A DNA stretch of 63,356 nt, counting the filler, from Neolecta irregularis DAH-3 (taxonomy: Eukaryota): NCBI GenBank assembly GCA_001929475.1. It is 15 parts of 15 records of this genome, joined end to end, with 100 filler letters (N's around TTAATTAATTAA, not from the genome) between each part and the next. Parts side by side here need not be neighbours in the genome. Positions count along the whole stretch, not along the records: positions 1 to 25,228 come from LXFE01002040.1; positions 25,329 to 29,233 come from LXFE01002074.1; positions 29,334 to 35,048 come from LXFE01002091.1; positions 35,149 to 36,217 come from LXFE01002100.1; positions 36,318 to 37,480 come from LXFE01002103.1; positions 37,581 to 39,578 come from LXFE01002109.1; positions 39,679 to 40,782 come from LXFE01002116.1; positions 40,883 to 44,877 come from LXFE01002117.1; 7 more parts are not named here. One strand, given 5' to 3'. The notes beneath the pieces are model-generated. The model worked only from the letters and a program-made list of their open reading frames with translations, made no database searches and was not told where the DNA came from. Every line of letters starts with the position of its first letter. Position 1 is the first letter of the stretch. Below, piece by piece: positions 1,865 through 61,462 of this stretch. The translations under genes were made by a program, and so were the position numbers.

Positions 1865-2968
1865 TCAAAATACCGTTCGGGAAGCCATTTTTTCAGAACG
1901 TTGCCCATGATAAGGATATTCAGAGGTGATGGTGATGATGCTTCCGAGAATGGACTCAGAATTTAGGTTTGTGTTCAATGCCGTTTCAATGTCAACAAAA
2001 GCCAACTGGAAAGCTAAACGCAGAGTCGATATATTGAAGGAGGATCGCGTAACATCTCTCTTATGAACGACTGGATCCATAATACTGAGTAGCATGGGCT
2101 CCTTGACATATATCGCATCGACATCTTCCTGAATTGGTCACCAGATGCAGGCCTGAAGTTAGGTATACCTTGAAAACGATTGTTCCACTACCTGGTAACA
2201 GTGAATGCCTTTTATAATCCCAAATATTGCCGTAGAAGTTGAAATATTCTCGTAAAACCCGGCCTAGACCATCTACCTTGGGAAGTGTGGGATAGTTTGC
2301 TTTGTAAATCTTCACAAACCCAATAATGCTGAGCATCATTGCATAAGATCCCAATCCACCTTCCCGAACATTATCGAGACAGCGCTGCTGGAGCCTTTTT
2401 TTAAAAAAGTCTCGAGAGGATCTTCAGTACCAGTACTTGATGATCAAACCTAGGGGTTTGATCATGGGTTTTTTCGCGATTTCATCTTTAATAAATAGGG
2501 TTGTTCTAACTCCGTCAGAGTTCTTCAAATTAATGTCGACGTGGACATTGCCTCGCGAAACATCGAGATATTTGATGAGAGGAACCTAGATATTAAATAA
2601 TTCACTGGATTGAAACATGCCTTGGCATTTGTGACAAGATCAAGCTTATCTGTGACTCCATCGCTTTTTAAAGCCACGCTAAGCCTCGAAAGTAAGGTAT
2701 TACTGGATCCCATAGGATTGTAAACGTAACAATCGATATCACTCGTGCTCAAGGACAGCCCTGTCGCATAACTTCCAAAGAGGTGGCATTTAGCTTTTGG
2801 CCAAAGTCTATTGACAGTTTCCTGCAAACGGTGAAATGCTGCTTCGCGAGTATGGTATTCTTCCACAGTGAGAGAAATATAGTCGGTGAAATCAAAGATT
2901 TCTGTTTGGAGACGAGCGAGCGGATTTCCCATATTCGGAAGGAACCATGGAGTATCAGCGCCGTTCAT
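1865..2968 (-). CDS. TRF4: Non-canonical poly(A) polymerase, Trf4/Cid14-like (spliced; 3' end uncertain)
   Basis: Nucleotidyltransferase motif LFGSYATGLSLSTSDID, then spliced NAK|VPLIKY, GGLGSY and PAP-associated LSIMDP motifs. Several short introns, one of them GC-AG (2586-2620). Confidence 0.85.
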
Positions 2969-3149
2969 CAGGCCGACCGAGTCTGCTCGAGAAGGGTCTG
3001 AAGCAACAAAAGACCTAGGTTGACGAGGTGGAGTATCCTAGTCCTAGTTGAGAAAGAATAAGCGTCATTTTCAGACTTACTCCCTCAATATCGGTATTAG
3101 CTACTCAAATTACATGTATAGAAACATCGCGTTAGCACACATGCATTCT

Positions 3150-4194
3150 CTAATCAATATCCGGTGCCGCGTTTATCCGCTTAGGCAATGTGGAAAGCAA
3201 ATCTTGTTCTTGCCGCTTCCTTGACTGGTCTGCCTCTCTGTCTTCTGGGATAACAGCTTTTCTCTTTTCCCCACGACGGCGAACCACCTGTGGCACAAGT
3301 TTAGCGGCTTCTTTACGGAGATCTTTCATCTGGGGGGCAGCTGAAATCACAAGTGGTGCAGGCTTTTGCGCCGTGAGTGTGTCCTGGGCGGGGTCTGCGA
3401 GTTTAGCGTCAGGTGAATCAGGCGTAAAGCGAGCCAAGGGATCTTGTTGTCTGTTAGGAGGAGGAATATGCGGCCTGTATGGAGCGGGGCGGTCCTGCAC
3501 TTGTGGTGACTGCTGAACAGGAACATCGGTATACTCATCGTCGTTGCTTTCGTAATATTCAGAACCCGACAATGAAGGTGGTGTTCCTTGCGGCATAGGA
3601 ATGGCCCGAGTGGAACTTGTCGTCGAGTCGTCTAATTGTTAGTAAATTTAGATCAGCTGCCGGAAACTCACTATCACTGATTTCTTCGCTCTCCCCATCA
3701 CTCCGAACTTCCCGGTATGCCATACCAGGCGGCGGAACTCCATAGGGGTTATAGACAGGATCATAATAAATACTTTTTTTGGGATTCTTTGGAATTTCAA
3801 TAACCAGTCCCTCCTTCTCAGCAGCTTTTGTTTTCTCGCTAATAATTTCAGGTACATGATTTCGTCTATTGTTGCGCAGGTCGTCTTCTAGTTGGGCAAG
3901 GATGGCTCTATCTCCAGCAGAAATGCGTCCCTTGGCCTCAAGATCCTTGAGATCTGATATCTGCTGCTGAAATTTGGAGACAACGGGTCTGGAATTTCTA
4001 GCATCCCGAGCCTGTTTTCTTTCGAGAGTTCGCTATATCAATAAATAAGGATTGTGAAATAGGGAAAAAGTGCCTTGGCAAGTTCTTTTCTCTTCTCCTT
4101 TTTCCCTTTGGGTGGTAAGCAAATCTCAAACACCGTTATCGGGGATCTCACGCTGAGACTGAACTGGGTTGAGGTCTTTTTTGTCCTTGACCAT
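3150..4194 (-). CDS. WBP11: WW domain-binding protein 11 (Wbp11/Saf1-like splicing factor)
   Basis: Spliced N-terminus MVKDKKDLNPVQSQRKKEKRKELAK|RTLERKQAR, central SIYYDPVYNPYGVPPPG, C-terminal ISAAPQMKDLRKEAAKLVP. Three introns, one GC-AG. Confidence 0.8.
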
Positions 4195-7243: not shown

Positions 7244-9764
7244 TCAGACAATTTTAGAAAGCTCAACGAAGGACCTGGATTTTCTGGCAAGGTTAGAACA
7301 TTCAGCAGACATAAATGCCTTGTTAGGAGATTGTTTCGCTTTGATAACAGGGATTTCAACCGCTGTTCGACACTGAATGCCCAATTCCTCAGCGCGAACC
7401 TTCAAATGATCCAAGTTGACCTTCGAGAGATCGAGCAAGGGGAAGTAATGTTTCGCGGTGCTCGGATTTAACAACCGTGCTGTAAGTTCTTGGTTGTGTA
7501 AACAGTGAATAGTATTGGCTTGTTGTAGCACTATTTCCTGCCTTTGGATTTTGGGAGCTTCCCTCATGGATATTCGTTGTGGTTCTACAAACTCTTGTGA
7601 GACTTGATGAACATACCGTTCCAGGAGTGGCTGCGTGGGACGACATGTGGGTTGAATGTATTGATGAGCCTTTGCGGGAAGTTGAAGTTCGCTGAGGTGT
7701 TGCTGGCTGGTATTCAATGGAGTGGGTGATGTGCCGATTTGGCCTGGCGGAGCCGAAATGATTGGTTGAAGAGCAAAGCGAGTCTGCGGAGTTGCCGTTA
7801 AGGCTCTGAGCTGCGCAAGCGTAAGTTTGATTTAAAAATAAAAGAATCGAACGTACATGTAAACCACTGTCTTGAAAATTCTCTCGATCGGAAGGGTTTT
7901 CCGAAGAATTTTGCATGAGAGGCGGTGCAATCAAATGAAGCATGTCTTCCGGACATCTCATTCGAGCAACCTGCAATAAACCAAGCTTTTGTCTCTCAGT
8001 GAAAACAACATTCTGTAGACCAGAATAAACAAGGCGTTCTAGCAAAGGCCTATCTAGTTTAGGTAGATTTCCCTTAGAAATATGATTTCGAAGTGACTCC
8101 ACCCCAACTAATCGTCAGTAATTTCTAAAGAGTTGTTTTACTTTTCAGCGCTTCGAACAAATGGTCTCGTTGCATAGCCGTGTAGAACTCCGCTTGGTGC
8201 CATGGAAACTACAAGTCAGAGAGATTGGAAAAAGCCATGCCTTGACAATAATGCTAACAAGGCTTTCATATGGGCGCTCGGGACACTTTTTACTGTACGG
8301 AGACTGCGGGGCTTAAAATGGGAATAAGATAAGCAATACTCTGTAGATCTTGGCATGAACAAGAATGCTATTTAGTTCTTCTCGAGTAACGAAAGGAGCA
8401 TCTGGGATTGCGAAATGTCTTTCTGCCATTATTTCTGGCGTAACATATGGGTCAACTCCTCGCCAGTCTCCTCTCCACTTGGGGAAGATGATCTTCATCA
8501 ATTCCTCCTTGGTCGAAATGGAAAGAGATACGTTTCGAGAGCCTAGCAAACGGTTATGTTTCCGTTGAACAATGCGTTGGGCATCGCTAAGCGAAGTGAA
8601 TTCGACGTAGCAATCGGACGAGGTCTTGCCAGACATTCTAGCCTGTTAGATTGTCAATGGATATTCAAGACACCTGTCCATTGTAATGTGGATGCTCTGA
8701 GCATGCTCGGCTGCAGGTGGTAAGCGGCAGTTCTTACCAAGAAATTCTTGAACATTTGCAATTGTACTATCCCACGGAATCTACATGATAATGAGACAAA
8801 GGGCTTCTTACGGTCTCGTACGTTTGAGATTTTTACCACAATATAATCGTGGGGTTTTGCAAGTTGGCTTAATTCCTGAAACGAATTATGGTGCGATAAG
8901 TCTTCAGCATGCTCTATAAAACTGGAAGCATCAATTTGGAAATTCGCTGATTGACGATATTCCGGTAATTTGTCTTTGCCAGAAATGGCTACTGAGTTGA
9001 TAGCTGGAATGTATGCATTGTTGGGAGGAGTTAAATCTGAAGTATAAGCCTGAGGAGACGGAATGGCCTTGAGATCTTGCATTCCGGTGCTAACGAAGCA
9101 TGAAATGTGCTAACGTCAATCGTGAAGACAGCAAATCTGTACCTCTCCACACAAGGTACAAGAGCAGATAGAAGAGAGGTTCCGTGTAATAAGCACCCTC
9201 ATACAACTCTGACAAATGCGATGCCCACAAGGAGTTAGAAGCATAACAGATAATCCTGCAGCGCATTGATGGCACTGATTCGAAGGAGACCCACCCATGA
9301 GACTGGACTCGAAGCCTGGCGGAACTGAAAGCCGTGGCGTACTCGTTCGAGGCAGATAACCTTCTTGTAGGGCATCATAGCTTTCAGATGGAGGTCTAAT
9401 GGTGGACACAGCAGTGTACTTTGCAGGGTTGGTGTATAAAATTTCGTCATGAGCATTATTCAAAGCATTAACCGATTGTCCAAAGATAATTCCAGTATTT
9501 TGCTGGTTATGACGGCGTCCGAGTTGGGTATAACCAGGAGAACAGTTCTCCAGGTCTTCTGTAAGTAGCATTTCAGCAGGGGAAGACAATGAAAGGTGGT
9601 TCGGTACCTTGGTAAGGCTTTAGCTTGAGTTCAGGCGCCAGTGCATTTATAGCACGTTGTTGCTGACTTGTCAGTATTCGAGAGGGGCCATTGCTTTGGT
9701 CGTAGATGACGAAGTCTTGCTGGCGAGGATGACCATAACTGACTGAGAGAGTAGGACTAAGCAT
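7244..9764 (-). CDS. Fungal RNA-binding protein with RING-like zinc finger and RRM
   Basis: CHQC...LLTPCGHRICQSC...CTLC (RING-like); VVKISNIPW, SGKTSDCYVEF and LLGSRNV (RRM); CPERPYESLVSIIVK|FPWH. About 8 introns; 3' end uncertain. Confidence 0.7.
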
Positions 9765-12481: not shown

Positions 12482-14100
12482 ATGGCGTCTCCAGCTCTCC
12501 AAGATTGGGCGATGAATCAGATTCGGAATCTTTTCCCCTTAGATGATGTCTCGATGGGACAGCTTATCGCATATATAATGTCCTTGTCATCGGAAAGGGA
12601 GATATCGAACTATCTTGTGGTATAGTTGCTTTTTCATTCAATTTGTCACAATAAAGGATTTATTGGGTGATAGTCCAGACCTGAGAGCATTCATAGACGA
12701 GTTCTGTGGAAAAATACGAACAGAAGAAGACCAGAAGATTGCACCCATGGAAACCCGAACAGTAAGAGTTAGTGGTCGATCAGTCATGACATTGCTTCTT
12801 GCAGACATCAAATTCAACAACAATACCACCCTCAGATGCCAAATCAAGATCCCCTCGATTTTCTAACAAGAGCGTGCCAAAAAGGTTTGAAACAGGAACC
12901 GATGATGGGAATGATGGCGGAAAAAATAGGCGAAGGGATCGCCATCTTGTTCCATCCAAGTACTCTTCATTTGAAAAATGCAGACTTAACACAAAAGATC
13001 TTCAGATGTTCAAAACTCACCATCTACTTCACGAGAACCTGTCCCATCGCATCCTCAACGTTCGACTATTGGGTCAGCTGGAAAGTTAACTTCGGATCTG
13101 GGCCGCACTTCGAAAAGAAACCCTGACGCACGGAGTAAATCAACTAAAGGTCCAGTCATAACTAAAGTGAATGCTTTGTCAGAAATTGACGCTGCATTGA
13201 AAGAGATGGAACTAGAAAAGAGCACATCACAAAACAAAAAGGAGAAAAAATGTGACTGTCAAGGTGCATCGTAAACCCTGTTTTGACTAATGCTTCAGCA
13301 CGAAGACATCCTCTTAACCCTCTTACCCCCAATTGTTTACATTGTGGAAAGATATCTTGCTTAGCAGAAGGCTCCGGTCCCTGGTACAGTATAATAAGTT
13401 CCACATACTGAGACAAAAGTACATTCTGCGGAAAGCCAATGCTATCGAAACAAGAACGACAAGAAATTATCAAGGAGCTTAAGCTGGAGCGCTCTCAAAT
13501 CAAAATGCAGCAAGGCAATAAAAAGAAAACTCCAGCTAGTAACAAAACTTCTACGTGGGCGCAAAGTGCCGGTAACGTCAACAGTCCTATTCCAGCACAA
13601 GACGAAGAAAGACTGAGAGAAATGGAAGAACGGAAAGATCGACTTCTTGAGTATGATCGTACCAGTGCTGGTCGAAGCAAAATTATTGGTAATATATCAT
13701 GCTAGAGCTCAAGTTAATACCGTGAGATGAAGCAGCTGATTTCAATGATATTCCTACCACAGATAAATGGGCTAGCCCGGCAGAGCGTGCACTTCAATTG
13801 AAACGTCAACAGAGGGCTTTACGTGCTTTAGAAAAGAAGAAACGCAAGATCATGAATCTTGATCTTGCTACTCAAAAAGTCACGTACCTCTATCAAACAG
13901 ATGATTCTGAGAGTGAAGTTGAAGTTCTTGGTGTTGTGGAACTTTTACCTGAAAAGGCAAAGGATAGCCTTCAAGAAAGACCGGAAGTCATGCTTAGATT
14001 CATTCCATCCTCTGAAAACTCTTTATGTTTTGAGCCAAACGAAACTACCCAGCGTCTACGTGAAAGCAAATGGCAACGTGTGCTATATGACGACGATTAA
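12482..14100 (+). CDS. RQT4: C2HC5 zinc-finger protein (ASC-1/TRIP4/Rqt4 homolog)
   Basis: Spliced KCDCQARRHPLNPLTPNCLHCGKISCLAEGSGPCTFCG, then RKDRLLEYDRTSAGRSKIIDEAADF and KWASPAERA. Confidence 0.88.
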
Positions 14101-17749: not shown

Positions 17750-19503
17750 ATGACCACAACCGATATACAACAGCAATGGTCTCTTCAGGATACTTCGCCA
17801 ACTTCAAAAAAGGCACGAATTCCTCTTCTCGCTGTTGAATTGACTAGATGCAGGAACTACTCGGCTGGTATTCATATGCTTTTGCAAGTGAAGTAGTCAG
17901 TGTCGTTACAATCTCGAATCTCGCTCCAGTGGCACTTGATAATTTTGCTCGGGAGAGCGGGTATGCGTCATCTGAACTTGGGAGGAAATGCGAGGAACAA
18001 GATGATCGATGTGTTGTTTATTTTGGAGATTTCGGCATCGACACTACTAGTTTTGCGCTTTATGTATTTTCAATAAGTGTGCTTTTGCAGGCGTTGGTTG
18101 TTATTAGTGTTGGCGGAGCTGCGGATCACGGAAAGTTTTATCGAGAAGAGTGAATTGACGACTTAGGTGACTTGAGAAAGAAACTGCTGGGAATATTCGC
18201 ATATGTCGGTAGTATCACCACGATGTTGTTTATTACTGTTCCTCGCACATGGTACATCCTTGCTGGTTTGCTAATCATTATTCTCAATGTACGTTTATGA
18301 TCCCTAGTTATATAACTAATTTCACCTGCAGATCTGTTTTGGTTCGTCAATGGTATGTCTCAACGCCTTTCTGCCCGTTTTGGTGCGAAACTATGCGTAC
18401 GACTCTGCGGGATTGTTTAATTCAAAAATATTTGGTTTATCTTCAGTACAATCAGAATCACCCGAATTAGATGCCGAGAATATGGAATCGGCAACATTGA
18501 TGAAACCAATACATTCAAACTTACCAGACTCGTACGCTGCTCAGTTGAATCTGTCCTCCCATATCTCATCCCAAGGTATCGCGATTGGGTTGGTAAGTGG
18601 TATTATCCTGCAGTTGATTTGTATCCCTCTTACCATATCCACCGGTTCTGGGACTTCCTCATTACAATACGCGGTTTTCGTCAGCGGGTTATGGTGGTTT
18701 ATATTCACCATTCCATCGATGCGATGGCTTAAAAGTCGACCAGGGCCCCCGCTGCCTACATTCTACAAGGACAAACTCCTATTATTACAATATATCCAAT
18801 ACGGATGGCAAAGTCTTTTTGACACGATCAAGGAAACTGCTCGTACGTTGCTACTTTATTGGTATGGTCTAACAAACTACCAGGTTTGAAAGACGTGATT
18901 ATATTTCTTGTGTCGTGGGCTTTACTAAGTGACGCTCACATTACAATCTCATCGTCTGCAATTCTCTTTGCAAAGACAGATTTACATATCAAGCCAGCAG
19001 GGCTCATCGTCATCGGAATGCTGTCTACACTTTCTGGAATTGTAGGTGCATTCACATGGAGTCGCTACATTTCACCCAAATTTCATCTTTCTCCCGATTC
19101 CGCGATTCGGCTGATTGTTGCATTGTCGTGTTTGATACCGGCTTACGGGTTACTCGGGTTCATCCCGCTGTGTAGACAGATCGGGTTTGGAGGTCTTATC
19201 AATCCAATTGAGATTTATTTCCTTGCTCTGGTTTATGGGTTTTTAAATGGGGCATTGCAGGGATACACTCGTGCTATGTTTGGTTCACTGATTCCCGCTG
19301 GCCGTGAAAGTGGATTTTTTGCGTTATATGCGATTACCGACAAGGGTAGTGCAATGTTTGGGCCGGTGATGGTTGGGATTATAATTGACAAGACACATGA
19401 AATTCGGTGGGCGTTTTTGTTGTTGTTGGTGATGTTGGGATTGTCATTGTTGGTTATGACGTTTGTCAATACCCAGCGAGGACGCCAGGCGGCGAGGCAG
19501 TAA
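17750..19503 (+). CDS. ATG22: Vacuolar amino-acid efflux MFS transporter Atg22
   Basis: TSKK|ELLGWYSYAFASEV, DTTSFALY, ADHG, LKSRPGPPLP and FFALYAITDKGS, with many transmembrane segments. Needs one GC-AG and probably one GA-AG intron. Confidence 0.92.
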
Positions 19504-19822: not shown

Positions 19823-20920
19823 TCAGCTATGATTAATTATGGAGCAACCCCAATTTTCAACGACAAAATCGACGAGAAGAGATCTTACTTGGACGAAGTG
19901 GAAGCCGAGTCTAGAAGTATCGTGAAACAAGAGATGGACTGCAATTTCGGCCGTGAGACCGTTGCGGAGGACTGCAAAGGCTTTGAATTTTAAGGTTTCG
20001 AGTTGGTACATGTCGGCCAGGCGGTAGACCATGGAAGGACTGCAACGGGGTGGTGATTTATCCGGAAATGAATGTGAAGTGTGGTCATCGTGGAGGGGAG
20101 AGGTGAAAGCGATGATGTCGGTATAGAGCCAGTACAAGATTCCATGAAAAGCGTTGATGTCAGGAACAGAGAGGTTTATGACGTGATAGTGTCGGTCCTG
20201 TTCAATGGTGGTCTCTGTAGATCCTTCGGCAAAGTTTCCTGACAGGAGATGTCTAAAGTATTCGCAACGTTTGACTAAGATGGCCTTGTGGGCGTACATT
20301 TGGAGGCTGTCTGGGCCGTTTGACACGCGAAAGAGGACGTCTGAGAAGCTTGGATCGTTGAGAGTGTCGCCAAAGGAGTTGAGGAGCTGGAGAGGGACTT
20401 CTTTTGTGGATTTGTCTGGGGGCTGGTCAAAGAGACAGTTTTCCTCTGTGATGACTTTCAAGGCGAGGACGATGCGCATGCCGTAGAGGGGACCTCGAGG
20501 GGGAACAGTGGAGTCTGGCCAGAGCCACTGCGGGTTCTGATCTGCATCAAAGACAAAGCCATCTGGGCCTTTTATGGATCTGTAGGAAAGCTGCTGGTCA
20601 CCGCGGGGGTCGCGCTTGAGGAATCTGCAGACGATTTCGAAGGAGGCCTTGCGGGTCCAAAAATCACCAAGTTCGCGTTCGCGGGCAGTGGGAATTGGGC
20701 GAAGGGCAAAAGAGTAGCGGTCCCAGATGCAGTCTGAGGCCAGGGCGGTGAGTTCGAGGAGCCATTCTGGGGAGGCGACGAGAGGAAGAGTGCATGTGGG
20801 AGTCGAGGCAAAGGCAGCAGGGGCGAATAGCTCGTGTGGGTTTTCGAGGATGTGTTCTGCAGTGTAGGTGGTCTTTTTTTCTCTGTGGTGGAGTGAGATT
20901 TGTGGGGCAGGAGGGAGCAT
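19823..20920 (-). CDS. BTB/POZ domain protein (intronless, 365 aa)
   Basis: FSDVLFRV...MYAHKAILVKRCEYFRHLLSGNFAEG, FHGILYWLYTD and VYRLADMYQLETLK. Confidence 0.85.
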   Translation of the reverse strand: MLPPAPQISLHHREKKTTYTAEHILENPHELFAPAAFASTPTCTLPLVASPEWLLELTALASDCIWDRYSFALRPIPTARERELGDFWTRKASFEIVCRFLKRDPRGDQQLSYRSIKGPDGFVFDADQNPQWLWPDSTVPPRGPLYGMRIVLALKVITEENCLFDQPPDKSTKEVPLQLLNSFGDTLNDPSFSDVLFRVSNGPDSLQMYAHKAILVKRCEYFRHLLSGNFAEGSTETTIEQDRHYHVINLSVPDINAFHGILYWLYTDIIAFTSPLHDDHTSHSFPDKSPPRCSPSMVYRLADMYQLETLKFKAFAVLRNGLTAEIAVHLLFHDTSRLGFHFVQVRSLLVDFVVENWGCSIINHS

Positions 20921-20934
20921 GTGGCGGTGTTGGA

Positions 20935-21090
20935 GGTGATGGTATGGTGTGTAGATGATGGAGGTGTATGTTGTGGTGGTGGTGTATTGTGACGCTTATT
21001 AGCAGGTGGTGTAAGGTGGTGTATGATTTGGTGAATGTGGTGATTTGGTATAATGTGGTGATTTGGTGTAATGTGGTGATTTGGTGTATC
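20935..21090. repeat. G/T-rich minisatellite (AATGTGGTGATTTGGTGT, about 3-4 copies, plus GGT runs)
   Basis: Directly visible. Confidence 0.8.
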
Positions 21091-21167
21091 AAGATCAGAG
21101 GATTCCATCTCTCCCTCCCCTCAACTTCACTAATCACCGNNNNNNNNNNTAACAGGCCAACTGCAGG

Positions 21168-22370: not shown

Positions 22371-23268
22371 GATTCCGCTGAGTTTCTACAAGAGTTCCTC
22401 CGACAAAAGAGATAGAATAGAATTATGAGAGGCTAAAACTGAAGAGAAGCAAAAATGGAGAAGTGGCTTATGGTGTAGCAGCAGAACCGTCTCAGAGAGT
22501 GAAACCTATATCAAAGACTTGAAACTAGAAAGTAAGGGAAACAGAAAACCTTGGCATCAGGATTCTGCAAGTTGTGAAGCGTAGTGTACAAATAAGATCG
22601 GTTTATATTTCCTTAACCTAAGCAGTGTGCCTTAGACGTTTGGTATACCTAAACTTAACCAGTGGTGTGGGGATTCCCGGAACCCCCACAGCCACGGCGG
22701 ACGGATAACCACCGCCACCGGCAAACGAANNNNNNNNNNTTAACCTCTCTAATCTGACCGGCCTAGGAGATACTGGCGTATCCCCTCCTTTCCTGATTCT
22801 CCTCTCCTGAATTACCCATTCCGACGGGGCTGGAATGCTGTTGGGCAGTTTGGCCGCTTCTAGAGTTTCTCCGCCTCTCCCTCTTCCAATTCCGTTTGTT
22901 TACTAAATTACTTCCTGTTCCAGGGAGGCTAGTACATTGCTGGGCAGTCTGGCCGCTCTGGGTGGTCTCCGTTGTCTTTTCTATTTCCGTTATCTCTCCT
23001 TCTGCTTTGTACTCTATCCGTTTGATTCCAAGCCGCCGCTGAATAAGGGCTGCTCTTTTCTGTTCGTATGTAGCCAATTGGATCAATCTATTTCCGTTTC
23101 CAAAGACGACCCAAGAGATTGAAGCCCATACAATTGCGATCACCGATTAATAAACTATAAATAATCTATAAACTCATACAGCATCCTGCGTGCAGCAGTG
23201 CAGGTGCAATGTGGTGTATGATTGCAGGTGGTTTCTTTTTTGTTGATGGAGGTTACCACTCTCCACCA

Positions 23269-24068: not shown

Positions 24069-24097
24069 CTTTCTGATTGGCAACATGTTCAATATGG

Positions 24098-25228: not shown

Positions 25229-25328
25229 NNNNNNNNNNNNNNNNNNNNNNNNNNNNNNNNNNNNNNNNNNNNTTAATTAATTAANNNNNNNNNNNNNNNN
25301 NNNNNNNNNNNNNNNNNNNNNNNNNNNN
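25229..25328. other. Artificial contig linker N44-TTAATTAATTAA-N44 (13 more start at 29234, 35049, 36218, 37481, 39579, 40783, 44878, 47312, 48435, 50253, 57838, 59323 and 62204)
   Basis: Identical 100-nt spacer with stop codons in all six frames; an assembly artefact. Confidence 0.97.
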
Positions 25329-26825: not shown

Positions 26826-28221
26826 ATGCCGAAAATTCTAGTCATTGGAGGACTTAGTTTCGCGGGAAGACATCTTTGTCTCATGCTACGAGACGAAAGA
26901 CTCATCGATAAGTTGTGTGTGGTTGACAAAAGACTTCCACAATTTGCTTATCTCGATGAAGAAATGGAGGAAATAATTTTTCCGCACTTCATACAAGGTG
27001 ATATGGGATGTGATGGTGCCTGATTCCACATTCATATGCCGAGCTGAATCATTAGATACCGTCAAGCAAGTCTTTTCTATGGAAGACTGGGACTGGGTTT
27101 TTAATTTTCAATCAGACGTACCATACAACCAAGAAGATGAGGTATACTACCTATAAATTTAATCTTTTCCTTTTGCTTGCAGATCTATAAACACGTTATT
27201 TATGATTCGGCTGTCAAATGTGGCAAAAAAGCAGCAGAACGAGGAGTTAAGTGTTACATCGCGTTGAGTAGTTTCGAAGTATACAAGATATGAAATCCGT
27301 ATGACAACTTTCAGGTATACAAATGCTCCCACGAGCAGCAAAAAGAAGAAGCACAGTTGAAACCTTCAACCAAAAGGGGGAAGTGGAAGATGAAGGCTGA
27401 AGAAGCATTACAAGCAATTCCAAAGTGTATTCCAGGGCCTTACAAATCATTAACCTCAAGTCTAAACTTGGTGATTGTTCGACCAGCAATGAAATATGGA
27501 CCTCACTGTTCTTCTGGTATTGGTATCGTGATTTTATTTGAGATCCATATAAAACTGATGCTTAAGCTACCACTTTTGCCCTCGGATCGGTATACCAATA
27601 TCTTGACGAGACATTTATCATACCCGGTAAAGCAAACACAAAGCATGTCATCCCTGTCCACCATATTCTGATAGTCCAGAAGGAATCTTGTACATGTACA
27701 AGATGTAGCTCGTGCATTCCTCCATCTCGCTAAATGGTATACACCAAGCACCAAGCCAACTCCAATATTCAATGTTGGCGGTAAATCAGACTGTAGTAAG
27801 TTCACAAACCCCTCATATACTAAAGAATTTAGCTCAAGAGACTCAAATTCCAATTTACAAAGCACTCTTCAATATTGAGATCAAGTTCCTCGACTCTCTT
27901 TTTTCATCATTATTTTTTAAATCCAAAATGGACGAACTTTGCAGCGAAATCAATGATTCCACCCTCTCGGTCTGGAACGAAATGCTTCGAAAGGCAGAAA
28001 TCCTTGTCACTCCAATAAGTCCATATCTTGATTCGGAATTCTTGGAGCTGAAGGAGATTGCAATAGACGGAACCAAGATTGAAAGGGATACTGGATTTGC
28101 CTACTCAAAACCACATCCCAAAATTGAATACTTCCAAGAGATGCTTCAAGATTATATTAAAAGGGGACTTTGGCCGGATGTAGTTGCAAAGGGGAAGATT
28201 CAAAAAGTTCAAAGGGTTTGA
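26826..28221 (+). CDS. NAD(P)-dependent epimerase/dehydratase (extended SDR)
   Basis: KILVIGGLSFAGRHL, GKWKMKAEE, IVRPAMKYGP, NLVHVQDVARA and IDGTKIERDTGF. About 7 introns, one GC-AG. Confidence 0.85.
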
Positions 28222-49260: not shown

Positions 49261-49263
49261 ATT

Positions 49264-50065: not shown

Positions 50066-51407
50066 TTTATTTAGCTATATTGCGCGGCAATCTTCTCAGT
50101 GGAATTTGAAGACGTTTAGAGGAAGGAATCCAGCAGTTTATTTAGGTATGGGACGCGGCGGTCTTCTAGTGGGATTTGATACACTTTTAAGCTCAACACC
50201 GATTTAAGCGACACCCCCCTTTACGCGACACCTCGCCAAAAAAAAACGTAAANNNNNNNNNNNNNNNNNNNNNNNNNNNNNNNNNNNNNNNNNNNNTTAA
50301 TTAATTAANNNNNNNNNNNNNNNNNNNNNNNNNNNNNNNNNNNNNNNNNNNNTTGGAAATGTGTGGGAAATCGGGTTAGCTTGTCATACATATGTTGACC
50401 AGAATAAGTTGAAATATGATTTGTAGGAGCTCTAGTAGTTCCAGACTTTATTGTATCACTGCTTAATTACTCACTTTTCATCTTGCATCTACAGAAATTG
50501 GGTCCACAACCTTTTGACTTGACCGGTTCATGCGACTGTTCTGCTCTGGCACACTATTCATTTTTGGAGAACTCCATTCACCCTTCTCCAAGCTTGGACA
50601 GCAGCTACATCTTATGCAAATTTCATTCACTCGGTGTTCAACAATATCTACCAAAACTTTTTAAGCTAACGGATCGTATCACGTGAAAACGAAATCGTGA
50701 GTAAGGATCACTTGATGAACTATCGTAAATCATCTCGAACAACGCGAGGTTATTGATATTCTAAGACCCACCTTTCTTCCAAGCCAACCATCAATAGAAT
50801 TTTCATAGCACATGTCTTCAGCCCGTTGCCCAAACAATGATATTTACTAAACGCAGAAGGAATACGCGATGAGATGAGTAAGACTGACGGGATGAAGTGG
50901 TTTTTTTTCCTGAGCGAAGGAATTAGCGTAGCTGTTCAAGAGACATTTAACTATTGGCCATTGCCCTGCATATTGAAATCCCGAAAATCTGTGATGCCAT
51001 TATCACTGTCAATAATTAGATGGAAAATGTTGAAACATCATGAAGAGTATCAACCAATGCCCACTCAATCCCGCTTAACTATGTTCTATTTTATGTTGCC
51101 CTTCGATAATGTCCCAATAAAACTTAGCTGAGCAGCCAGTATACATCCTAATACAATCATAGGAATATTCACCGGTGAAAAATATCGCCCTCGACGCCAT
51201 CCTATTTCTTGAGCTTGAAGGAAATACTTTGTTGGAGAGTAATTACTATGCAAGTAAGCATCGTGATATATAGAGCCAATTATTATAAACAACCATTTAA
51301 ATATGCCAGAAATATCAAAAGAAACACAATGAACTCTTAAATTTCAATAAGAAACGACACCATCAACTCCACAGCCCACCTCTACGTGAAGAAAAAAGAG
51401 ATACAGA

Positions 51408-54400
51408 TTAATGGCGGGACTTCGAGCCTGAGCTCATGCGCTTTTGGAGTTTAGGCATGGCGGAGGCAGCGGCACTGCTTAGTGTGCTGGTCGAGTGACT
51501 TGTTATAATCGTGTTGCGTTTTGATGAGGAAGAGGATGCCGCTGGGACAAAGGCGGGAGCCGCGGTAGTGGGAGGAGAAGACAGCGGGGCTTCTTGGGAT
51601 GCACGTTTTGCTAGGCGGGTAGCGAGATATGTGCATGCCGATGCATTAAGACCAGAGTACTCGCCGGTGGGAAGATCAGCATTATGTTGGAGGAGAAGTT
51701 CGGCGATGGGAAATGTTTCATCGTCATGGCGCAGGGCGTAGATTAGCAGGGGCACGCTATTGTATTCGATATTCGCGTCTGCGTGGCTGGCAAGAGCGGC
51801 ATAAGTCCGGTTAAGGTCGTTTGCTTGGATTGCATCAATCATGGTTGTGTTTGGGTTTGCGAGTTGGCGTATGTATAGCCTGTCGACGTACTTGTTTCGT
51901 ATAAACCTGTCTCGACCCTCCTTACTTGTCGTCGCGGAATGCCGCAAACTTGGTTCAAGAGTATGTTCCCACACCTGGCGGGAGACGGTGTTTCCTAGAC
52001 GCCGCAAAAGTTCAATGAGATCAGCGTTAAAGGATGTTGTGTCTAGTGTAAGACTCCGTGTTTTTGAAACATGTGTGCCGAGAGATCGATGCACACCGCT
52101 ACAATCTTTTTGTGAGATAGGGCTACTGCAGTACAAACTCTTACCAATGCACAAGACGATTCCAAGATTGATAGAACACCATTCAGTCCTGTTTGCGGAT
52201 CCGCAGTCGGCACAAATTGCGTTCAACTCATCCGCCTCCTTGATAATCGCCAATAGTCTTTGTCCGCCTTCAACATCAACAGAAACTCCCCGTGCATGGC
52301 CTTTGCTAGCCGTCACCCGGCGCTTAACCTGCGTACCCAGTACGATATTCGGCACTGCATCGTCATCTTCAGCAAGCGTTGATAAATCGAAATCAGTAAC
52401 ACTCGCAGTTCCATCGAGAACACCTTCAATTGCGTTCCGTATCGACTGAATCCACAAGGCCATATCTTCGGCACTCGTTGCTTGATACACCCGTTTCGAC
52501 TGCGGCGTAATTACTTCAAAGCAAAATCGGCGATCTGCATCTCGACATTCTCGCACAGATGCCATTTGTAAAGAAATCCGGTGGTGTAACTCTGGGGTGT
52601 GTTTCCAGTTACTATGCTCGCAAAGTTGACCTCCGGCTAAAGTGACCCAGTATCTAAACATGAGTATATGCAGAAAATCAAGGCGATATACTTGTGCCAA
52701 TTGAGTTTCTGGACAACTTTGGGATCAGTTTGGCCACCTTTGCTCAATGCCCATAATAGCCCTTCTTTTCGACGCGCCGTATTTGCCTTTTCGCCTGCAT
52801 TATCCTCTAAATCTCGAAACCCCTTGAATCTGTCCAGTCGATCAGACTGATCCGTGGGAGAAATCAAACTGTCGTCGAGATGATTTGGTTCATAAGACAT
52901 GGGACTAAACATTCCGCTAACATTCTCATCGTTAAATCCTCCAGCTTCAATCGCGCGTCTTCGTTCCTCGCGTTCCGTTCGTTGAAGACTAACTTCTTTA
53001 TCCGCCTCATATACAGCCTTCTTTAAAGCCTCCAGATTAGGACCGAGATCCTTCAAGTCTCGCGCATTGTTTAGAAAGTTCTCACTCTCGACAATTGCAT
53101 ATTGAAGGAGCGCATGTAATACCTCCTGCTCCTTTTTCCCTCCGTGTAAGTCTTGCATGTAACTGCAATAATCGAACCGTTTCAATTCAAAAGTACGGCG
53201 CTTTGAAATGTATTTTGTGTCTGATTTGACTTTGGCCTTGGCAGAATGAACGGAGAGATAGCGAGATAGAAATTGATAGTATTCCTTTGACTCTTCCTCG
53301 AATTCTTTCTTTTTCCCTTCAGCAGCTTTGATATCATTTTCATAGACTTTCCGAAGCGGTTCGATGATAACATTTTGTAATGTTGCTGCGTGGAGTTCCT
53401 GGATTTCATTAATTTTCTCAAAGGCAGTAGATAGATAGTGGTCTAAGACTGGCTGAATAGATCCCGTGCTTGAAGCAACGCCTCTAAGTGCCTGCATGAA
53501 TGCTATATTTGCTTCATTGGCAAGGAGTTGAGATTCAAAAGCTTGTGTAGCGCGTTTAATAAGTTTCTTGAGTTTCTGCTTCTGTTGACCTGTTTTCTTT
53601 TCCATGGCAGACATTGTTGATCTAAACACCGGACCATCTTCATGCTTAAGGATCTGGTTATCACCGTGGTTCGAAGATAGGGTTATTGTTCCGACCTGCG
53701 GCGGAGAACCGAGAAACGAAGGTGCTGGTACGTTTTCATAGACTGGCGTTTGGAGTTCAGGAGAATCAGGCCTTGTGGGATCAGATATTCGCGAATCATA
53801 CGATCGAGAGAGAATAGTGAGTTTTGGTGGGTGTGGTAACATTGGTGGATTAGACCAGCTCTCTCGAGGAATTTCATCTGAGATTAGAATGAGACATGCC
53901 ATTTACAATATCATACCATGAACCCAGTATGAAAACGAGAACAGCATAGGGAACTTATTTCCTTGTTTATCAAATTCAACAAACTAATAGCATTAGAATT
54001 CATCCCACCAATATCTTACGCAGCAAGTGTTTCTCCATCCATGATATTTCTCCTCCATCTCTCGAGGAGCCCTCCATTTCCACACATATTCAACATCCTT
54101 TTGGTCATGATAGTCTCCAATCAAAGTGACGTTGCGATGATTTTGCAGCTAGGCCGATCAGCAAAAAATATCGCCTAAAAGATTTACATTCTGATCCCAT
54201 CCAAAATCCACGCTTAGCATTCGATCAATATCTTTCCGGCTACTCGAGTTGATATGCGTCAGCCCATTCACGTTTCCAGGGATCTGCAAAGTGAACGTAA
54301 AATAAAGTTCCTCGTCGTATGGTATCCTCAAGATAAAATGACCGGCACTATCGGGATCCTGCCGCCATAAGCTCATCTCTCTCGCTCCGTCTCATACAGA

Positions 54401-54615
54401 AACAAACGGGACGAGTTCGTTTCCGCGTTCAGCGACGACCTTGGTGCCGTTTGATGTGATGTACGTGTGTGTAGCGTTGTCGGCTGTTGCGATACGAAGT
54501 TGCGATACCCAGACTGGACTGTTAGAATGTCAAATGGAGTGAAAAAAGTGCATCTTGACTTGTCCTTTTGAAAAATCAGCGCCGACTCATCTACCCGTGA
54601 TGATAAATTTCCCAT
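51408..54615 (-). CDS. csx2: BAR-PH-ArfGAP-ankyrin protein (Csx2/ACAP-like)
   Basis: MGNLSSR start; EDGPVFRS BAR; RKEGLLW...WHK|YWV and RRFCFEVITP PH; CADCG...EWCSINLGIVLCI|DCSGVHRSLG ArfGAP; ankyrin-like tail. Confidence 0.9.
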
Positions 54616-54731
54616 GGTGGTTGGGTGGTTGGTAGTGTTGATGCTGTGGAGCCCAAAGTAGCTTGTTTGAATTCCGGAGACCAACGTTTGCCTATTCAAC
54701 CCCTGTTTTTTTGTTGTGCACTAAAGAGAAT

Positions 54732-55628
54732 ATGTCGATTTATAGCGGCGACGATCGGCTGAGTGATCTGATTTATATAGATGAATCCACCAGACTGCCT
54801 TACGAATATGATAGTGATGCGGATCAGTCAATGAAGGTTTCATATATCGATTATACCAGGGATCCGGCTGAGCATTGCCAAAATATTTACCTTCGGGATA
54901 AATCAGGGAGCTCGGCCGGTTTAAACAATGAAAGGAGACCGAATAACATGGACTTAACAGCAAGAAACGATCAAAGGAGACTAATGCTACCTCCTGCTTT
55001 GTCGAATAAAGCAAATAGTAATTTCCAGCAATTAAATCAAGGCACTATGGATGAATATTCTGCTAATTCAGAAATAAATTCGGGAACGAAAGCGGAAGGC
55101 GTTTATTATCCCGGCCCAATACCTCGAGAACTGAATTTACCGCCTATTCTATCTACTAGGGACTCGGAAAGCATCACAAATCTCAATAGAACATCCATTT
55201 CTGCTCAAGATACACTCGATGATTTCTTGACTACAAACGTAGTCCCAGCTGCCGTTCAGACTCAAAAGATCCAAGAAGGTTCACTCTTGTCAATATCCCT
55301 TGCTCAAGCTTCTGCAAAGAAGTCTCTTATCTACGATGGGCAGAAACGACAGACGACTTTACTTCAAGAATACCATCAGCTACGTCCAACATCGCCCGAC
55401 AGGGGTTTGCCCTTTGATCAGCAGGCTCGACGTATGTCGCCTCAACGATCGCCCTGTAAAGAAGATGATGTCCCACTCGCGCTGCGATTTAAAAACGAAG
55501 ACAATGAAGTGCTCGCGCAGAGAAAGGAACGGCTGATGAGGCAAAAGGAAGATGTCCCTCTAGCATTTGTCAAATTGAGGTTAAACAAAGAAGAAATGGT
55601 TAACCAATGGAGAACCGGAGTTGATTGA
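54732..55628 (+). CDS. Hypothetical intronless protein (about 298 aa)
   Basis: Long ORF with repeated (D/E)DVPLA motifs and C-terminal VNQWRTGV. Confidence 0.65.
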   Translation: MSIYSGDDRLSDLIYIDESTRLPYEYDSDADQSMKVSYIDYTRDPAEHCQNIYLRDKSGSSAGLNNERRPNNMDLTARNDQRRLMLPPALSNKANSNFQQLNQGTMDEYSANSEINSGTKAEGVYYPGPIPRELNLPPILSTRDSESITNLNRTSISAQDTLDDFLTTNVVPAAVQTQKIQEGSLLSISLAQASAKKSLIYDGQKRQTTLLQEYHQLRPTSPDRGLPFDQQARRMSPQRSPCKEDDVPLALRFKNEDNEVLAQRKERLMRQKEDVPLAFVKLRLNKEEMVNQWRTGVD

Positions 55629-56083
55629 GTCTTGTTGCTTCGTTTGGGAAGGAGTTCTTTGTTCATTTGATTCTTGTAATGTATAATGTCGACTACTGCT
55701 TCTAAGCGAATAGTTTTTTATTAATTAATGGGTTGTCGCAATTGATGATGTCTTGCTAAAGAGACTTCTGTTCGGACGAGTACCAGAAAATGATACTCTA
55801 GTACCCATAAATTGTCTGAATATCATGATGAACCTTTTGACATAAAGTAACCATTAAGAGCATGTTTCATATACTTTTTTCCCATTGTATTTCATGGATT
55901 CCAAGAAGGAGAAGCAATGCAAAAAAAAGATGTTATCCTTGTAGGTATTTGTGCTCCGGTGTCCCCTACGGGTATTGAGCTAATTATGCCATGATGAATT
56001 AAGGGTCATTCGTGACTTCGTTTATCGGTCCACCAAAACTGGGCAGTCGCGGTCTCACCTCCAGATTATAATCGGCCAGCAAA

Positions 56084-56782
<699 letters not shown>

Positions 56783-56970
56783 ATATATCTCAATGCATTG
56801 TCTTGCTTCAACATTTCGAGGTCTTGATTGATGATTGAAAAAAAGTATATATTTCAACCTCCATAAATCTATGGATCACCATCTCGTGTCATCTCTTGCC
56901 ATTTTGACAAAGATAAGCGAACTTGTTGAACGAGGAAGCCTGGATAGAGGTAAAGGGGGGTTAGTCTAGC

Positions 56971-57133
56971 CATTGTGTCCAACCGCCGTCCGTCCGTCGG
57001 AGAGTTGTCCGGCAGCGGCCCGCCGGCGGGCCGTCGGGCAGATTACTAAGCCAACACCCGTCGAAGAGATACGAACCGCCCGCCCGGAGAGTGCTCTGTC
57101 GGCTGTTGAGCTGTTGGACGGGTTGCATACAAG
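56971..57133. mobile_element. GC-rich MITE-like relic (CATTGTGTCC start)
   Basis: Start resembles the CAGTGTGTCC ends of other elements in the window. CCGCC/CCGTC repeats and an imperfect inverted end. Confidence 0.45.
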
Positions 57134-57773
57134 GAACAAATATCCAAAAATGTCAGCCGAATGTGAAAAACTGAAAATTCTGCCAACTTCTATCTCAATG
57201 AAGAATTCTGAGAATAGATCGAAGATGGCATTCGAAACTGAAACAGCTCAGTATTCACTCCTACATCATTATATTGTTTTCCTCCACTATTCATTATCTC
57301 TGTTTCAGAAACTACTTGCTAATTCATTAGACTATATGTTCGTGGATGGGGGCTTGGTCGGTCTGGTCCAGTCGGTTAGGAACCCTGTTGCCAACACTGG
57401 AGGCGAGCAAGATTGGAGTGCGAGGCGGGCGACTCGCCAGGTGCGTGAGACGGGCGGGCGAGATGGGAGAGACGGGCGCGAGGTGGGAGACGGGCGTGCG
57501 GCGCGAGACGAGCGGCGCATTGCTCGTCGCTGGAGTTCTTTGTGTATGCGCTGCCGAGGCTTGCATGGCCGCACCTGCTGCAGGCGGTGGCGTTGGGAGC
57601 AGCGGTAGGCGGCGGCAGCGATTGCGGGCGCGGAGCTGGGCGTGGTGCTGCTGCTCACCGCCCGCTGCCCGCGAACCCGTGGCTGTACTCTTCGGCGGCA
57701 GCCAGGCGCAGCGTCGCCTTTGCGGTTGCAGATGCGCTACTCGCGCTGGCCATTCACTGCTGCTCGAGACGGG

Positions 57774-57837
57774 CGGGAGAGGCGGGAGAGGCGGGAGAGG
57801 CGGGAGAGGCGGGAGAGGCGGGAGAGGCGGGAGAGGC
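57774..57837. repeat. (GGGAGAGGC)n microsatellite running into a gap
   Basis: About 7 perfect 9-nt units. Confidence 0.9.
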
Positions 57838-57937
57838 NNNNNNNNNNNNNNNNNNNNNNNNNNNNNNNNNNNNNNNNNNNNTTAATTAATTAANNNNNNN
57901 NNNNNNNNNNNNNNNNNNNNNNNNNNNNNNNNNNNNN

Positions 57938-59322
57938 ACGACTTTGAAGTCTGGAACGCCCAGTATCCCTGCCGCGTCGCCCAGATCGCAGATCCCCTTC
58001 CCTACCCGCCCTTTGACACAACATCCGCCATCTGGGTCGGCGATCCTCCCGCCCTCAGTGCAATGCTCGCCCAACTCAAAACCTGCTCCGAAATCGCGGT
58101 CGATCTCGAACACCACGACTACAGATCCTTTGCCGGCTTCGTGTGTCTCATGCAAATAAGCTCCCGCGACCAGGATTGGATAGTAGACACTCTCCTGCTG
58201 CGCCAGGAACTGCAATCCCTCAACGCAGTCTTTGCCGACCCCGCCATCCTCAAAGTCTTCCATGGCGCCCGAATGGACATCCTCTGGCTTCAGCGCGATT
58301 TCAGCCTCTACATCGTCAGCCTGTTTGACACCTTTCACGCAGCAAAGTCCCTCCACTTATCAAGCCGCTCCTTGGCCTTTTTGCTAAAACGCTACGCCGA
58401 CTTTGACGCCGATAAAAAATATCAGCTCGCAGACTGGAGAATCCGTCCCCTCCCTCAAGAAATGCTCGCGTATGCGCGGTCCGATACCCATTTTCTGCTC
58501 TTCGTCTACGATAACCTGCGCAACCAACTCGTGCAGAATGACCGCCTGCAACACGTCCTCACCGCCTCCCGTGCCGTCGCCGCACAATCCTACCAGCGCC
58601 CCGCCTACGACCCAGACGGCTGGAAATCCCTCTACGCCAAATACGGTTCTGCAAAACTCCTCTCAAACACCCAAATAGCTGCCTTCACCGCCCTGCATCA
58701 ATGGAGAGACCGCATCGCCCGGCACCTCGACGAAAGCCTGCGTTACGTTCTTCCAACCCATTTGATGGTATCAATTGCTGCCGCATTGCCAAAAGACCTG
58801 CCCCAGCTTTACGCTTGTACCCTACCCCCTGTTGCCAAGGACTATGCAAACGATATCCTTCAATTGGTATCCGCTCATCACTCGGACTCTTACCACTCGG
58901 ACTCTCTTCACTCGGACTCTCTTCACTCGGACTCTCATCACTCGGACTCTCATCACTCGGACTCTCACTCAAGACCGGACTCTCATCACTCGGACTCTCA
59001 CTCAAGACCGGAATTACTTGCAAGCATATCAAGCTTTTGGACATCTTTACACCAGAATGAACCCAACCATAATCTTTTGAAACAACTCGGCTCACAGTTA
59101 CGAGTCGCCGTGCCTCTTCCTTGCTCTCCAAAAGTCGAGGCTGCAGCCCTCGCTGTACACCCTTTCAAGCCAACTCCCGACGACATTATCATTCCTCGTA
59201 CTGGAAAGAAGCGATCTCTTCAAATATTGCCCTATGAAAATCTACAACCCGTTCACACAAGAAAGAAAAAGAAACACCGCCTCGAAGAAACATCATCCCT
59301 TGACCCGCATAAAAAACTGCCT
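57938..59322 (+). CDS. RRP6: Nuclear exosome exonuclease Rrp6 (partial at both ends)
   Basis: IAVDLEHHDYRSF, CLMQISSR, KVFHGA, QLADWRIRPLP, YARSDTH and HRDC WRDRIARHLDES. Confidence 0.96.
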
Positions 59323-59422
59323 NNNNNNNNNNNNNNNNNNNNNNNNNNNNNNNNNNNNNNNNNNNNTTAATTAATTAANNNNNNNNNNNNNNNNNNNNNN
59401 NNNNNNNNNNNNNNNNNNNNNN

Positions 59423-61462
59423 CCAGCCACTCGGCCCGCGGCATGCACTGGCTGCGCGCCCACCTCGCTGCTGCGGGCAAAACCCCCGACGGCCTCGCTG
59501 CCGCCCTGCGCGCCATGGACGCTACTGCTGTTGCTGAGGTGCGTCCCTGTGCCTGCGCCGGTTAGTTGGCCCTGCCTGGGTTCCCGCCCCCGGGTTAACC
59601 CTAGGGTTGGCCCTAGTTGACCCAGGTGGGTTGACTAACCCAACGGCCAGGAGCGTTCCGGCCACGCTAACCCGCCCAGCTCTGCGACGACCAGTTCGAG
59701 GAACACATCCTCGCATACCCGCCGCACCGCAGCGGCCTCTATCTGCACGGCATCAACAGAAACACCCCCCAGTTCGTCACCTACCCCTTTGCCCGCGTCT
59801 GCGCCTTCGCCCGCGAGTGGGGCTTCCGCCAGACGCCCTGCCTCGAGAAGCACGACGTCCCCGCCCTCCGGTCCCTGCTCGCCGACGCCGCAACGACAGG
59901 CTCCTGGGCCGGCACGCCCACTGAGGGCTTCGTCGTCCGCTGCCAGGCCAGAGACGATCTGACCGCCGACGACCAGTGGTACGACTACTTCTTCAAGTAC
60001 AAGTTTGACGAGCCCTATCTCATGTATCGCCAGTGGCGCGAGCTCACCAAAGACATCATCGCAAACCGCGTCCTCAGAAATATGCACAAAAAGAACGCAA
60101 TCACTCGCTCCTATGTCCGCTGGGCCAGAAAAACACTCGCCGCCAGCCCCCCCGACGTCGCCAGCCAGTACCTGCGCAACCACGGCATCATTGCCCTGCG
60201 CGAAGAGTTTCTCAAACAATATGCTCCCAAGCCAACAGACTCGGACAGTTCCGTGGCCACGGAAATTACCACAGACACCCCCCTCGTACTCGTACCCGTT
60301 GCGACTGTAGGGTGCGGAAAAACATCAGTCGCCCTGGCCCTGGCAAGACTCTTTGGCTGGGCACATGTTCAGAATGACGACAACACCCGCAGAAAGGGAG
60401 CCGCTAAACATTTTGCCTCGTTAATTTCCGAGCAACTAGACACAACAAACATTTGTATCGCAGATCGGCACGTTGCTCCTAGAGTTTGCTAATTCTAGAA
60501 ATAACCACCTCGCCTCACTTCGACAAACATTGATAGACGATATCAGCCGCCACAAGCCCGATGCACGTTTTATTGCCCTGCACTGGGTCCACGACAACTC
60601 TGCAATCAAGAAAATTTACAAAACTACCCTGCATCGCGTACTCGCTAGAGGCGACAATCACCAATCAATCCAAGCAAGTGACGGAATTAAGCAAGTCTTG
60701 GGAATCATGGATGGTTTTCTTCATTCATTTCAACCCTGCAACGACGACCAATCGCCAGACGACAATTTCGATTTTGTAATAGATCTCCATCCACTCAAAT
60801 CATCCCGCGAGAACCTCGAGACGGTAATCACCACATTACGTCAACATTTCCCCGCAATCGTCCCCGAGATCCCTCCTCCTCAAGATCTAGATGATGCAAT
60901 CAAATTTGCCTTGGAAGAATATCACCCACAAATCAGAAAGAACGTACGTGATAAACTATTGTATTTCGCAGGTGTACTGGATCATAATATGGTTGATATC
61001 CTCGAATCAATCTATGCCAAACACCCCGAATCAAATCGAGAGTTTTTCGATTTCCTCCGCGCTAATCAAGGCTTCAAGGCCGAATTTCACGTTACCCTCG
61101 CTCACTTATGCGACAAGGCAACTCACCCACAGATATGGCAACACTATAAAAAACTCTTGTCATCAGAAATAACCACAGAAATAGAATTACAACTGCAAGA
61201 AATAGTCTGGAATGACCGGATAATGTGCGTACCCGTAACCCTTGTGCAGAAAGACGACGATAGAGTAGAATGTACCCATGAATACCCTCATATAACAATT
61301 GGCCTCGCTAATGATACGGTAAAACCAGTTGAAGCGTTGCAAATGCTACAAAAGAGGGCCACAGGCGAATTAGACGACATACACTCGATCACTATCCACC
61401 AAGATATAAAATTAAATGCACATGTCCGTGGAATTACTTACAAAAAAGGGCCGCAGGCTTAG
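59423..61462 (+). CDS. TRL1: Fungal tRNA ligase Trl1 (5'-truncated)
   Basis: AE|LCDDQFEEHIL, EGFVVRC and FFKYKFDEPYLMYRQWRE (ligase); VATVGCGKT and ADR|NNH (kinase); FHVTL and PHITIG (CPD). Confidence 0.96.

Follow-up and report, generated by a model that had tools for sequence, protein, structure and literature searches.

In a stretch of 63,356 bases of genomic DNA from Neolecta irregularis DAH-3, an early-diverging ascomycete (Taphrinomycotina), seven short introns begin with GC instead of GT and end with AG, and on the evidence of sequence and homology these seven GC-AG introns are almost certainly real. The whole stretch is here called the window. In the 31 gene models of our final census there are 69 introns with GT and 7 with GC, that is 9.2% GC among 76 in total; the GC-AG share is raised within the window and, judging from the window, is probably raised genome-wide as well. 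A first-pass annotation had proposed seven GC-AG introns of 31-41 nucleotides (nt), and all of them proved exact in the sequence, with a GC start, an AG end and lengths within that range at every one of the seven stretches. We think it likely that they are ordinary U2-type spliceosomal introns that carry C for T at position +2, and we infer that they would be excised from the RNA at the following bounds (the bases before the slash precede the cut).

2586..2620, minus strand: TRF4/PAP-like nucleotidyltransferase gene; 35 nt, phase 0, donor aag/GCATGT, branch TTAAT
4033..4073, minus strand: WBP11 homolog; 41 nt, phase 0, donor aag/GCACTT, branch TTGAT
8209..8240, minus strand: RING/RRM protein gene; 32 nt, phase 0, donor aag/GCATGG, branch CTGAC
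17813..17853, plus strand: ATG22, near the 5′ end; 41 nt, phase 0, donor aag/GCACGA, branch TTGAC
27643..27679, plus strand: epimerase-like SDR gene; 37 nt, phase 2, donor aaa/GCATGT, branch CTGAT
54514..54551, minus strand: BAR-PH-ArfGAP gene (csx2), N-terminal region; 38 nt, phase 1, donor gat/GCACTT, branch CTAAC
60468..60498, plus strand: tRNA ligase TRL1, kinase domain; 31 nt, phase 2, donor tcg/GCACGT, branch CTAAT

Evidence at the junctions

Each of the seven stretches lies between two open frames and breaks or shifts the reading frame. Since at all seven sites the flanking frames are either different or interrupted by a stop, a segment of that length class must go. In all seven introns a YTRAY branch motif stands 6-11 nt ahead of the AG, and the GC models reach signal scores of 12.7-15.8 bits before any dinucleotide penalty is applied, while the best in-frame GT alternative falls 7.1-14.1 bits below the GC model at every site. 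The sites are distributed over four separate contigs of the window, and the excess of GC-AG introns is therefore no local effect. The first-pass annotation had held that a GC donor was needed to restore both frame and motif; the frame bears this out at all seven sites and protein homology at six of the seven, with the epimerase match being weak. Homology at the junction itself is exact in two genes (TRF4 and TRL1) and favours the GC form in three more by profile hidden Markov models, HMMs (the RRM gene, ATG22 and csx2); for the remaining two there is a weak Pfam match in the epimerase gene, and frame logic together with splice signals in WBP11.

In TRF4 yeast Trf4 (PDB 3nyb_A) is matched by the upstream frame as far as residue 119, the alignment ending at base 2621, and the downstream exon, aligned by itself, picks up at residue 120 of the same chain. 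The E value of the latter is weak, the query being only 51 amino acids (aa), yet the two alignments are exactly contiguous, and within 12 nt there are zero in-frame GT-AG alternatives. In TRL1 the residues ADR/NN on the two sides of the junction correspond to residues 479-483 of 9r3w_A, aligned from both exons, and the Pfam profile tRNA_lig_kinase is matched at positions 62 and 61 across the junction. Shifting the intron bounds by one base yields no GY-AG pair there, and the best in-frame GT alternative is 14 bits below the GC model.

For the RRM gene an exhaustive HMMER search found a protein of a sister species (P0007), an ortholog in Pneumocystis carinii and more distant homologs; over the query exon P0007 has 98% identity, and in the tblastn pieces about 70-80%. 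The motif S-[IV]-[IL]-x-K-[FYH]-P-[WF]-H is present in all eight RRM homologs compared (P0007, P0008 and six more), and the GC-spliced sequence SIIVK/FPWH is colinear with every one of them. The nearest GT donor, GTCAAG, lies 6 nt upstream and would remove two residues. With an HMM built from seven homologs, the GC form scores 91.4 bits and the GTCAAG form 78.4, a difference of 13.0.

In ATG22 an in-frame ATG at 17848, just within the intron, permits an intron-free start (MQELLGW). The upstream exon aligns to the conserved N-terminal motif [QE]D...[TS]S[KR][KR]E of five homologs, and the HMM of these five gives 60.9 bits to the spliced form against 45.8 for the alternative start (15.1 difference).

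Searching with the BAR exon brought up a 100% identical protein, csx2 of Neolecta irregularis DAH-3, and the contig that carries it corresponds to window positions 50353-57837. The public model of this protein (P0157) has, in place of the GC-AG intron, a frame-keeping intron of 41 nt, GTCAAG..AACAG, at 54519-54559 on the minus strand, and this donor choice alters the conserved N-terminal motif of csx2. A run of our gene finder restricted to GT donors reproduced the public choice exactly. With an HMM of 15 homolog N-termini the GC form obtains 32.2 bits and the public GT form 21.5 (10.7 difference); the GC form aligns gap-free, and a conserved basic-hydrophobic pair is regained. Judged by these alignments, the public csx2 model appears to be mis-drawn at the weak GT donor GTCAAG.

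Elsewhere in the same gene, at 52106-52144 on the minus strand, a stop-free in-frame GT-AG intron of 39 nt (GTAAGA) lies inside the ArfGAP zinc-finger motif; it is annotated publicly but was overlooked by our gene finder. In-frame introns such as this one are missed when introns are counted from open reading frames (ORFs), and such counts are therefore too low.

The first exon of the epimerase-like gene matches positions 1-50 of Pfam Epimerase (E 0.021), and its 38-aa downstream exon matches positions 209-240 from its very first residue, with a weak E value of 0.0086. The acceptor is fixed because the downstream frame opens just 5 nt ahead of the AG. The best GT alternative is 8 bits lower and abolishes the downstream Pfam match. 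A homolog search with the last exon gave no matches, and a PDB search with the downstream exon none of use.

An in-frame stop pins the acceptor in the WBP11 homolog, and the match of the exon downstream to Pfam Wbp11 begins at profile position 25. The sole in-frame GT donors for the same acceptor imply introns of 101 and 119 nt, compared with 32-54 nt in the 56 confident GT introns. The PDB search returned nothing useful for this gene, and a Pfam search with its short pieces gave no match. The small exon that is retained by the GC model resembles the lysine/arginine-rich stretch which we take to be typical of WBP11 N-termini. For the first intron of this gene, at 4106-4151 on the minus strand, there is a choice of two in-frame GT donors, of which GTGAGA gives 46 nt and GTGTTT 28 nt; the gene finder chose the 28-nt form with a poor score, and a length of 46 nt is the more typical.

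Neither P0007 nor the csx2 BAR exon, used as queries against metagenome contigs, retrieved a relative or a transcript.

Gene finder and intron census

Three simple enumerations in which ORFs were joined could not separate GT from other dinucleotides, because each true intron casts many shifted shadow candidates. They were replaced by a Viterbi gene finder, which combines codon log-odds with donor, branch, acceptor and length scores and was trained on GT introns only. Its first settings, with a penalty of 5, gave 1041 introns and were over-calling. Further donor dinucleotides were then opened one class at a time with a penalty of 3.3 bits.

The GT-only run placed 69 introns in the window. At the seven sites it had to resort to long, odd introns or to a start lying downstream, and at all six apart from csx2 its models deleted or truncated conserved sequence. 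Opening GC added 75.9 bits and seven introns, exactly the seven of the first-pass annotation, with no GT intron displaced (70 vs 69). The other 14 non-GT dinucleotides gained 0.8-34.2 bits each, mostly from shifted versions of true GT introns. When all 15 non-GT classes were open together and the weights retrained, GC received 6-7 calls and the others up to 6; the gain obtained with one class at a time is the cleaner control of the two.

The exact 95% interval for 7 of 76 introns is 3.8-18.1%, or about 3-18% over 76-90 introns. Under a rate of 1-1.3%, the probability of at least seven among 76-110 introns is 1e-5 to 6e-4, a figure that has to be read with the pre-selection of the window as odd-looking in mind. 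The gene finder misses in-frame introns, so the true denominator is somewhat larger than 76, and the 80-90 introns that had been estimated by eye are a fair figure. The earlier statement that the rate is unusually high agrees with these numbers, 7 of about 76-90 introns here, some eightfold the level of about 1% in fungi according to extracts of PMC7072748.

Three extra GC-AG candidates appeared under laxer settings and were not counted.

24345-24390, plus strand: donor GCATGG; laxer settings, lower score, G+C-richer stretch
34963-35007, minus strand: donor GCACGC; laxer settings, lower score, G+C-richer stretch
35877-35923, plus strand: donor GCATGC; laxer settings, lower score, G+C-richer stretch

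One further site, 13264-13305 on the plus strand, has the ambiguous donor aagGTGCATCG and lies in a gene that has no Pfam match. The GT option has its donor at 13264 and the acceptor GAAG at 13305 (42 nt); the GC option has its donor at 13266, the acceptor TTCAG at 13298 (33 nt) and a CTAAT at the typical distance. The GC option is not counted among the seven.

Donor and branch signals

The 56 confident GT introns are 32-54 nt long, with a median of 39 nt, and the lengths of the GC introns (31-41 nt) do not differ from these. The donor consensus of the GT introns is weak, with about 2.9 bits outside the GT itself: A is found at +3 in 47/56, C or T at +4 in 48/56, G at +5 in 26/56 and T at +6 in 24/56. 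The same bases occur in the GC donors at 7/7, 7/7, 5/7 and 5/7, respectively. The mean flank score is 4.44 for GC donors and 2.30 for GT donors (Mann-Whitney p = 0.003; p = 0.01 when only the 53 better GT introns are compared), in a comparison that is biased towards strong GC signals. A perfect YTRAY is present in all seven GC introns vs 35 of the 56 GT introns, and an AG directly ahead of the donor in 4/7 vs 14/56 (Fisher p = 0.095). The GC donors are stronger, not weaker, in their flanks and branch sites, which is classical compensation, and the view that some of them, such as GCACTT, are weak could not be upheld.

A reading of the seven as U12-type introns was rejected, as their donors are GCAYNN and none resembles [AG]TATCCTT, and their branch motifs are YTRAY and not TCCTTAAC. 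The WBP11 intron does contain a TCCTTAT, but its donor is GCACTT. Sequencing error was rejected too; seven T-to-C errors placed exactly at +2 of well-formed introns are not credible.

Composition of the window

The window consists of about 16 small contigs. They are chained at 14 places (e.g. at window positions 25229-25328, with 13 more) by an artificial N44-TTAATTAATTAA-N44 spacer that carries stops in every one of the six frames. Two further gaps of 10 N are found at 21140 and 22730. Since the spacer joins are artificial, no feature can be read across them.

A Pfam scan of 230 stop-to-stop ORFs of at least 75 aa (119 + 111) revealed a fungal gene set, with the tRNA ligase Trl1 domains, Atg22, a Ydc2 resolvase, Anp1 and TYW3 among the matches, and furthermore a proteasome subunit, CENP-O, GH12, Wbp11/NpwBP and the BAR-PH-ArfGAP protein. 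The domains are often divided over adjacent ORFs with a gap of about 30-45 nt, and the genes must therefore have dense, very short introns. An Rfam scan of the window detected no RNA family, and hence no small nuclear RNA (snRNA) gene.

The G+C content of the window is 39-50% in 5-kb bins. It is about 0.50 in the bins 20001-25000, 30001-35000 and 55001-60000, and 0.39-0.43 in the other bins. The contig at 57938-59322 is a single open frame of 461 aa whose sole Pfam match is the GLTT repeat. At 57790-57837, on the plus strand, a (GGCGGGAGA)n-like microsatellite reaches the contig end and is probably what caused the assembly to break there.

Discussion

The most economical account of the enrichment would be a nearly neutral drift from T to C at position +2. 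A C at +2 would cost one base pair with each of the U1 and U6 snRNAs, and the loss could be offset by the donor bases that the genome prefers, namely A at +3, C or T at +4, in most cases G at +5 and T at +6, and frequently AAG before the cut. A perfect YTRAY motif 6-11 nt from the AG may be a further compensation. In introns as short as these (about 32-54 nt) the donor, the branch site and the acceptor are probably recognised jointly across the intron; a change from T to C at +2 would then be nearly neutral where the other signals are good, and such changes would build up to several percent. Extending this to the whole lineage, we lean slightly towards a genome-wide GC-AG share of about 5-10%, which would have arisen without a high G+C content and would be the highest yet described for any fungus, whether by near-neutral C at +2 or by U1 and U6 that are tolerant of it.

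Some of our own observations weigh against these conclusions. The rate is drawn from a single window, chosen for its unusual look, with about 76-90 introns, and the gene finder is crude; of the seven annotated csx2 introns it placed four exactly, set one donor wrongly and overlooked an in-frame intron, and it departs from the public model at the GC/GT site. That model, P0157, is the sole public one that was compared, and it takes the GT donor there. For the WBP11 junction the support is the reading frame, the Pfam Wbp11 match and the splice signals, and the downstream epimerase match has, as mentioned, an E value of only 0.0086. The flank comparison is biased because GC calls paid the 3.3-bit penalty, which favours strong signals, and n is 7.

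A different explanation, which we find unlikely, is that recognition of the 5′ splice site is generally relaxed through changes in U1, U6, Prp8, U1-C or Luc7, with donors chosen mainly by their distance to the branch site and acceptor. Relaxed recognition guided by intron length was the first interpretation of this window, and the part of it that concerns length and consensus has stood: the introns keep to a narrow range of 32-54 nt in length, the GT donors have just about 2.9 bits outside the GT, and two of the GC donors (both GCACTT) have no G at +5. The general relaxation has not stood, as GC alone is enriched among the 15 non-GT dinucleotides, and the GC introns have flanks above average and perfect branch motifs in 7/7, as in classical compensation. 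Since no other non-GT class is enriched, we see a tolerance for C at +2 rather than a general relaxation. The 5′ end of U1 is moreover unchanged in algae that are rich in GC-AG introns (extracts of PMC3033335), and with no snRNA gene detected by Rfam the window lends no support to a change of the recognition machinery, which is nevertheless a possible cause.

Somewhat less probable still is that the seven introns are real and the genome-wide share is an ordinary one of about 1-2%, the window being an outlier that was noticed as an outlier. Only some 76-90 introns were sampled, the lower end of the 95% confidence interval reaches down to 2.6-3.8%, and the p-values leave the many windows scanned uncorrected. 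However, at least seven such introns would be expected with a probability of only 1e-5 to 6e-4 at a rate of 1-1.3%, the sites lie on four independent contigs, and there are extra GC candidates of lower score at 24345-24390, 34963-35007, 35877-35923 and 13266-13298. Finally, it is very improbable that several of the sites are not GC-AG at all and instead reflect nearby GT donors, other starts, assembly errors or pseudogenisation: the draft assembly is made up of small contigs, the public csx2 intron GTCAAG..AACAG keeps the frame, and there are a GTCAAG 6 nt upstream at the RRM site and the in-frame ATG at 17848 in ATG22, but the homolog HMMs disfavour these three alternatives by 10.7-15.1 bits, GTCAAG has a C at +3 that is found in 0/56 confident GT donors, the TRF4 and TRL1 junctions are residue-exact, and frameshift errors would not bring together a donor-like motif, a branch motif and a well-spaced AG seven times.

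If the lineage does have a genome-wide share of about 5-10%, public annotation restricted to GT would mis-model each gene that has a GC-AG intron, which in the window means 7 of the 31 gene models. Should the rate hold genome-wide, GT-only gene models would be wrong at many loci, and comparisons of proteomes that include this species would inherit the errors; surveys of splice sites made from deposited annotations would in the same way be blind to the excess. A genome-wide rate of this size would also mean that a raised use of GC-AG introns needs no GC-rich genome, and would provide a fungal system in which to study what the tolerance for C at +2 depends on.

Comparison with known systems

The figures from PMC7072748, PMC3033335 and PMC4901422 that are used in this comparison come from extracts of those papers. 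Introns of fungi are 98.7% GT-AG (PMC7072748), and over 61 species 1.3% of introns are GC-AG (PMC3033335). Ordinary U2-type GC-AG introns have the same GC and AG ends as the seven described here, the consensus of the host's GT introns in a form stronger than average, and a branch motif of the U2 type. In fungi, animals and plants alike they account for about 1% of introns, as compared with about 8-9% of the inferred introns here. U12-type introns can likewise have termini other than GT-AG, but differ from those of the window in donors and branch motifs.

In searches of the literature on Taphrinomycotina, Pneumocystis, Neolecta and Archaeorhizomyces we found no report of a GC-AG frequency for this group. 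In the main text of the genome paper of the species (PMC5309816) the words intron, splice and GC-AG each have 0 occurrences, and GC-AG is unmentioned in PMC8476143.

Higher shares are known from three algae, Aureococcus anophagefferens (39.6%), Micromonas pusilla (22.2%) and Chlorella sp. (7.7%), and the authors link these to a genomic G+C content of 64-70% (PMC3033335). The rise in the algae is lineage-specific, as it would be here, with no known change of the U1 5′ end and a cause that is unexplained, at least in the extracts of PMC3033335. The algal genomes are however at 64-70% G+C, whereas the present window is fungal and at 39-50%.

The cyst nematodes Globodera rostochiensis and G. pallida have about 3.5% non-canonical introns, mainly GC/AG, which is termed uniquely high in the extracts of PMC4901422. 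They resemble the present case in having a raised GC/AG share at a moderate G+C content (37-38%), and their GC/AG introns were found on manual correction of gene models, having been hidden by default annotation settings. They differ in being animals with longer introns, and in that their rate was established genome-wide by RNA-seq and is conserved between the species, whereas here it comes from the sequence of one window (PMC4901422 for the nematodes). A fungal case rich in GC-AG introns at 39-50% G+C would join the lineages in which such introns are known to be raised, and would stand closest to Globodera.

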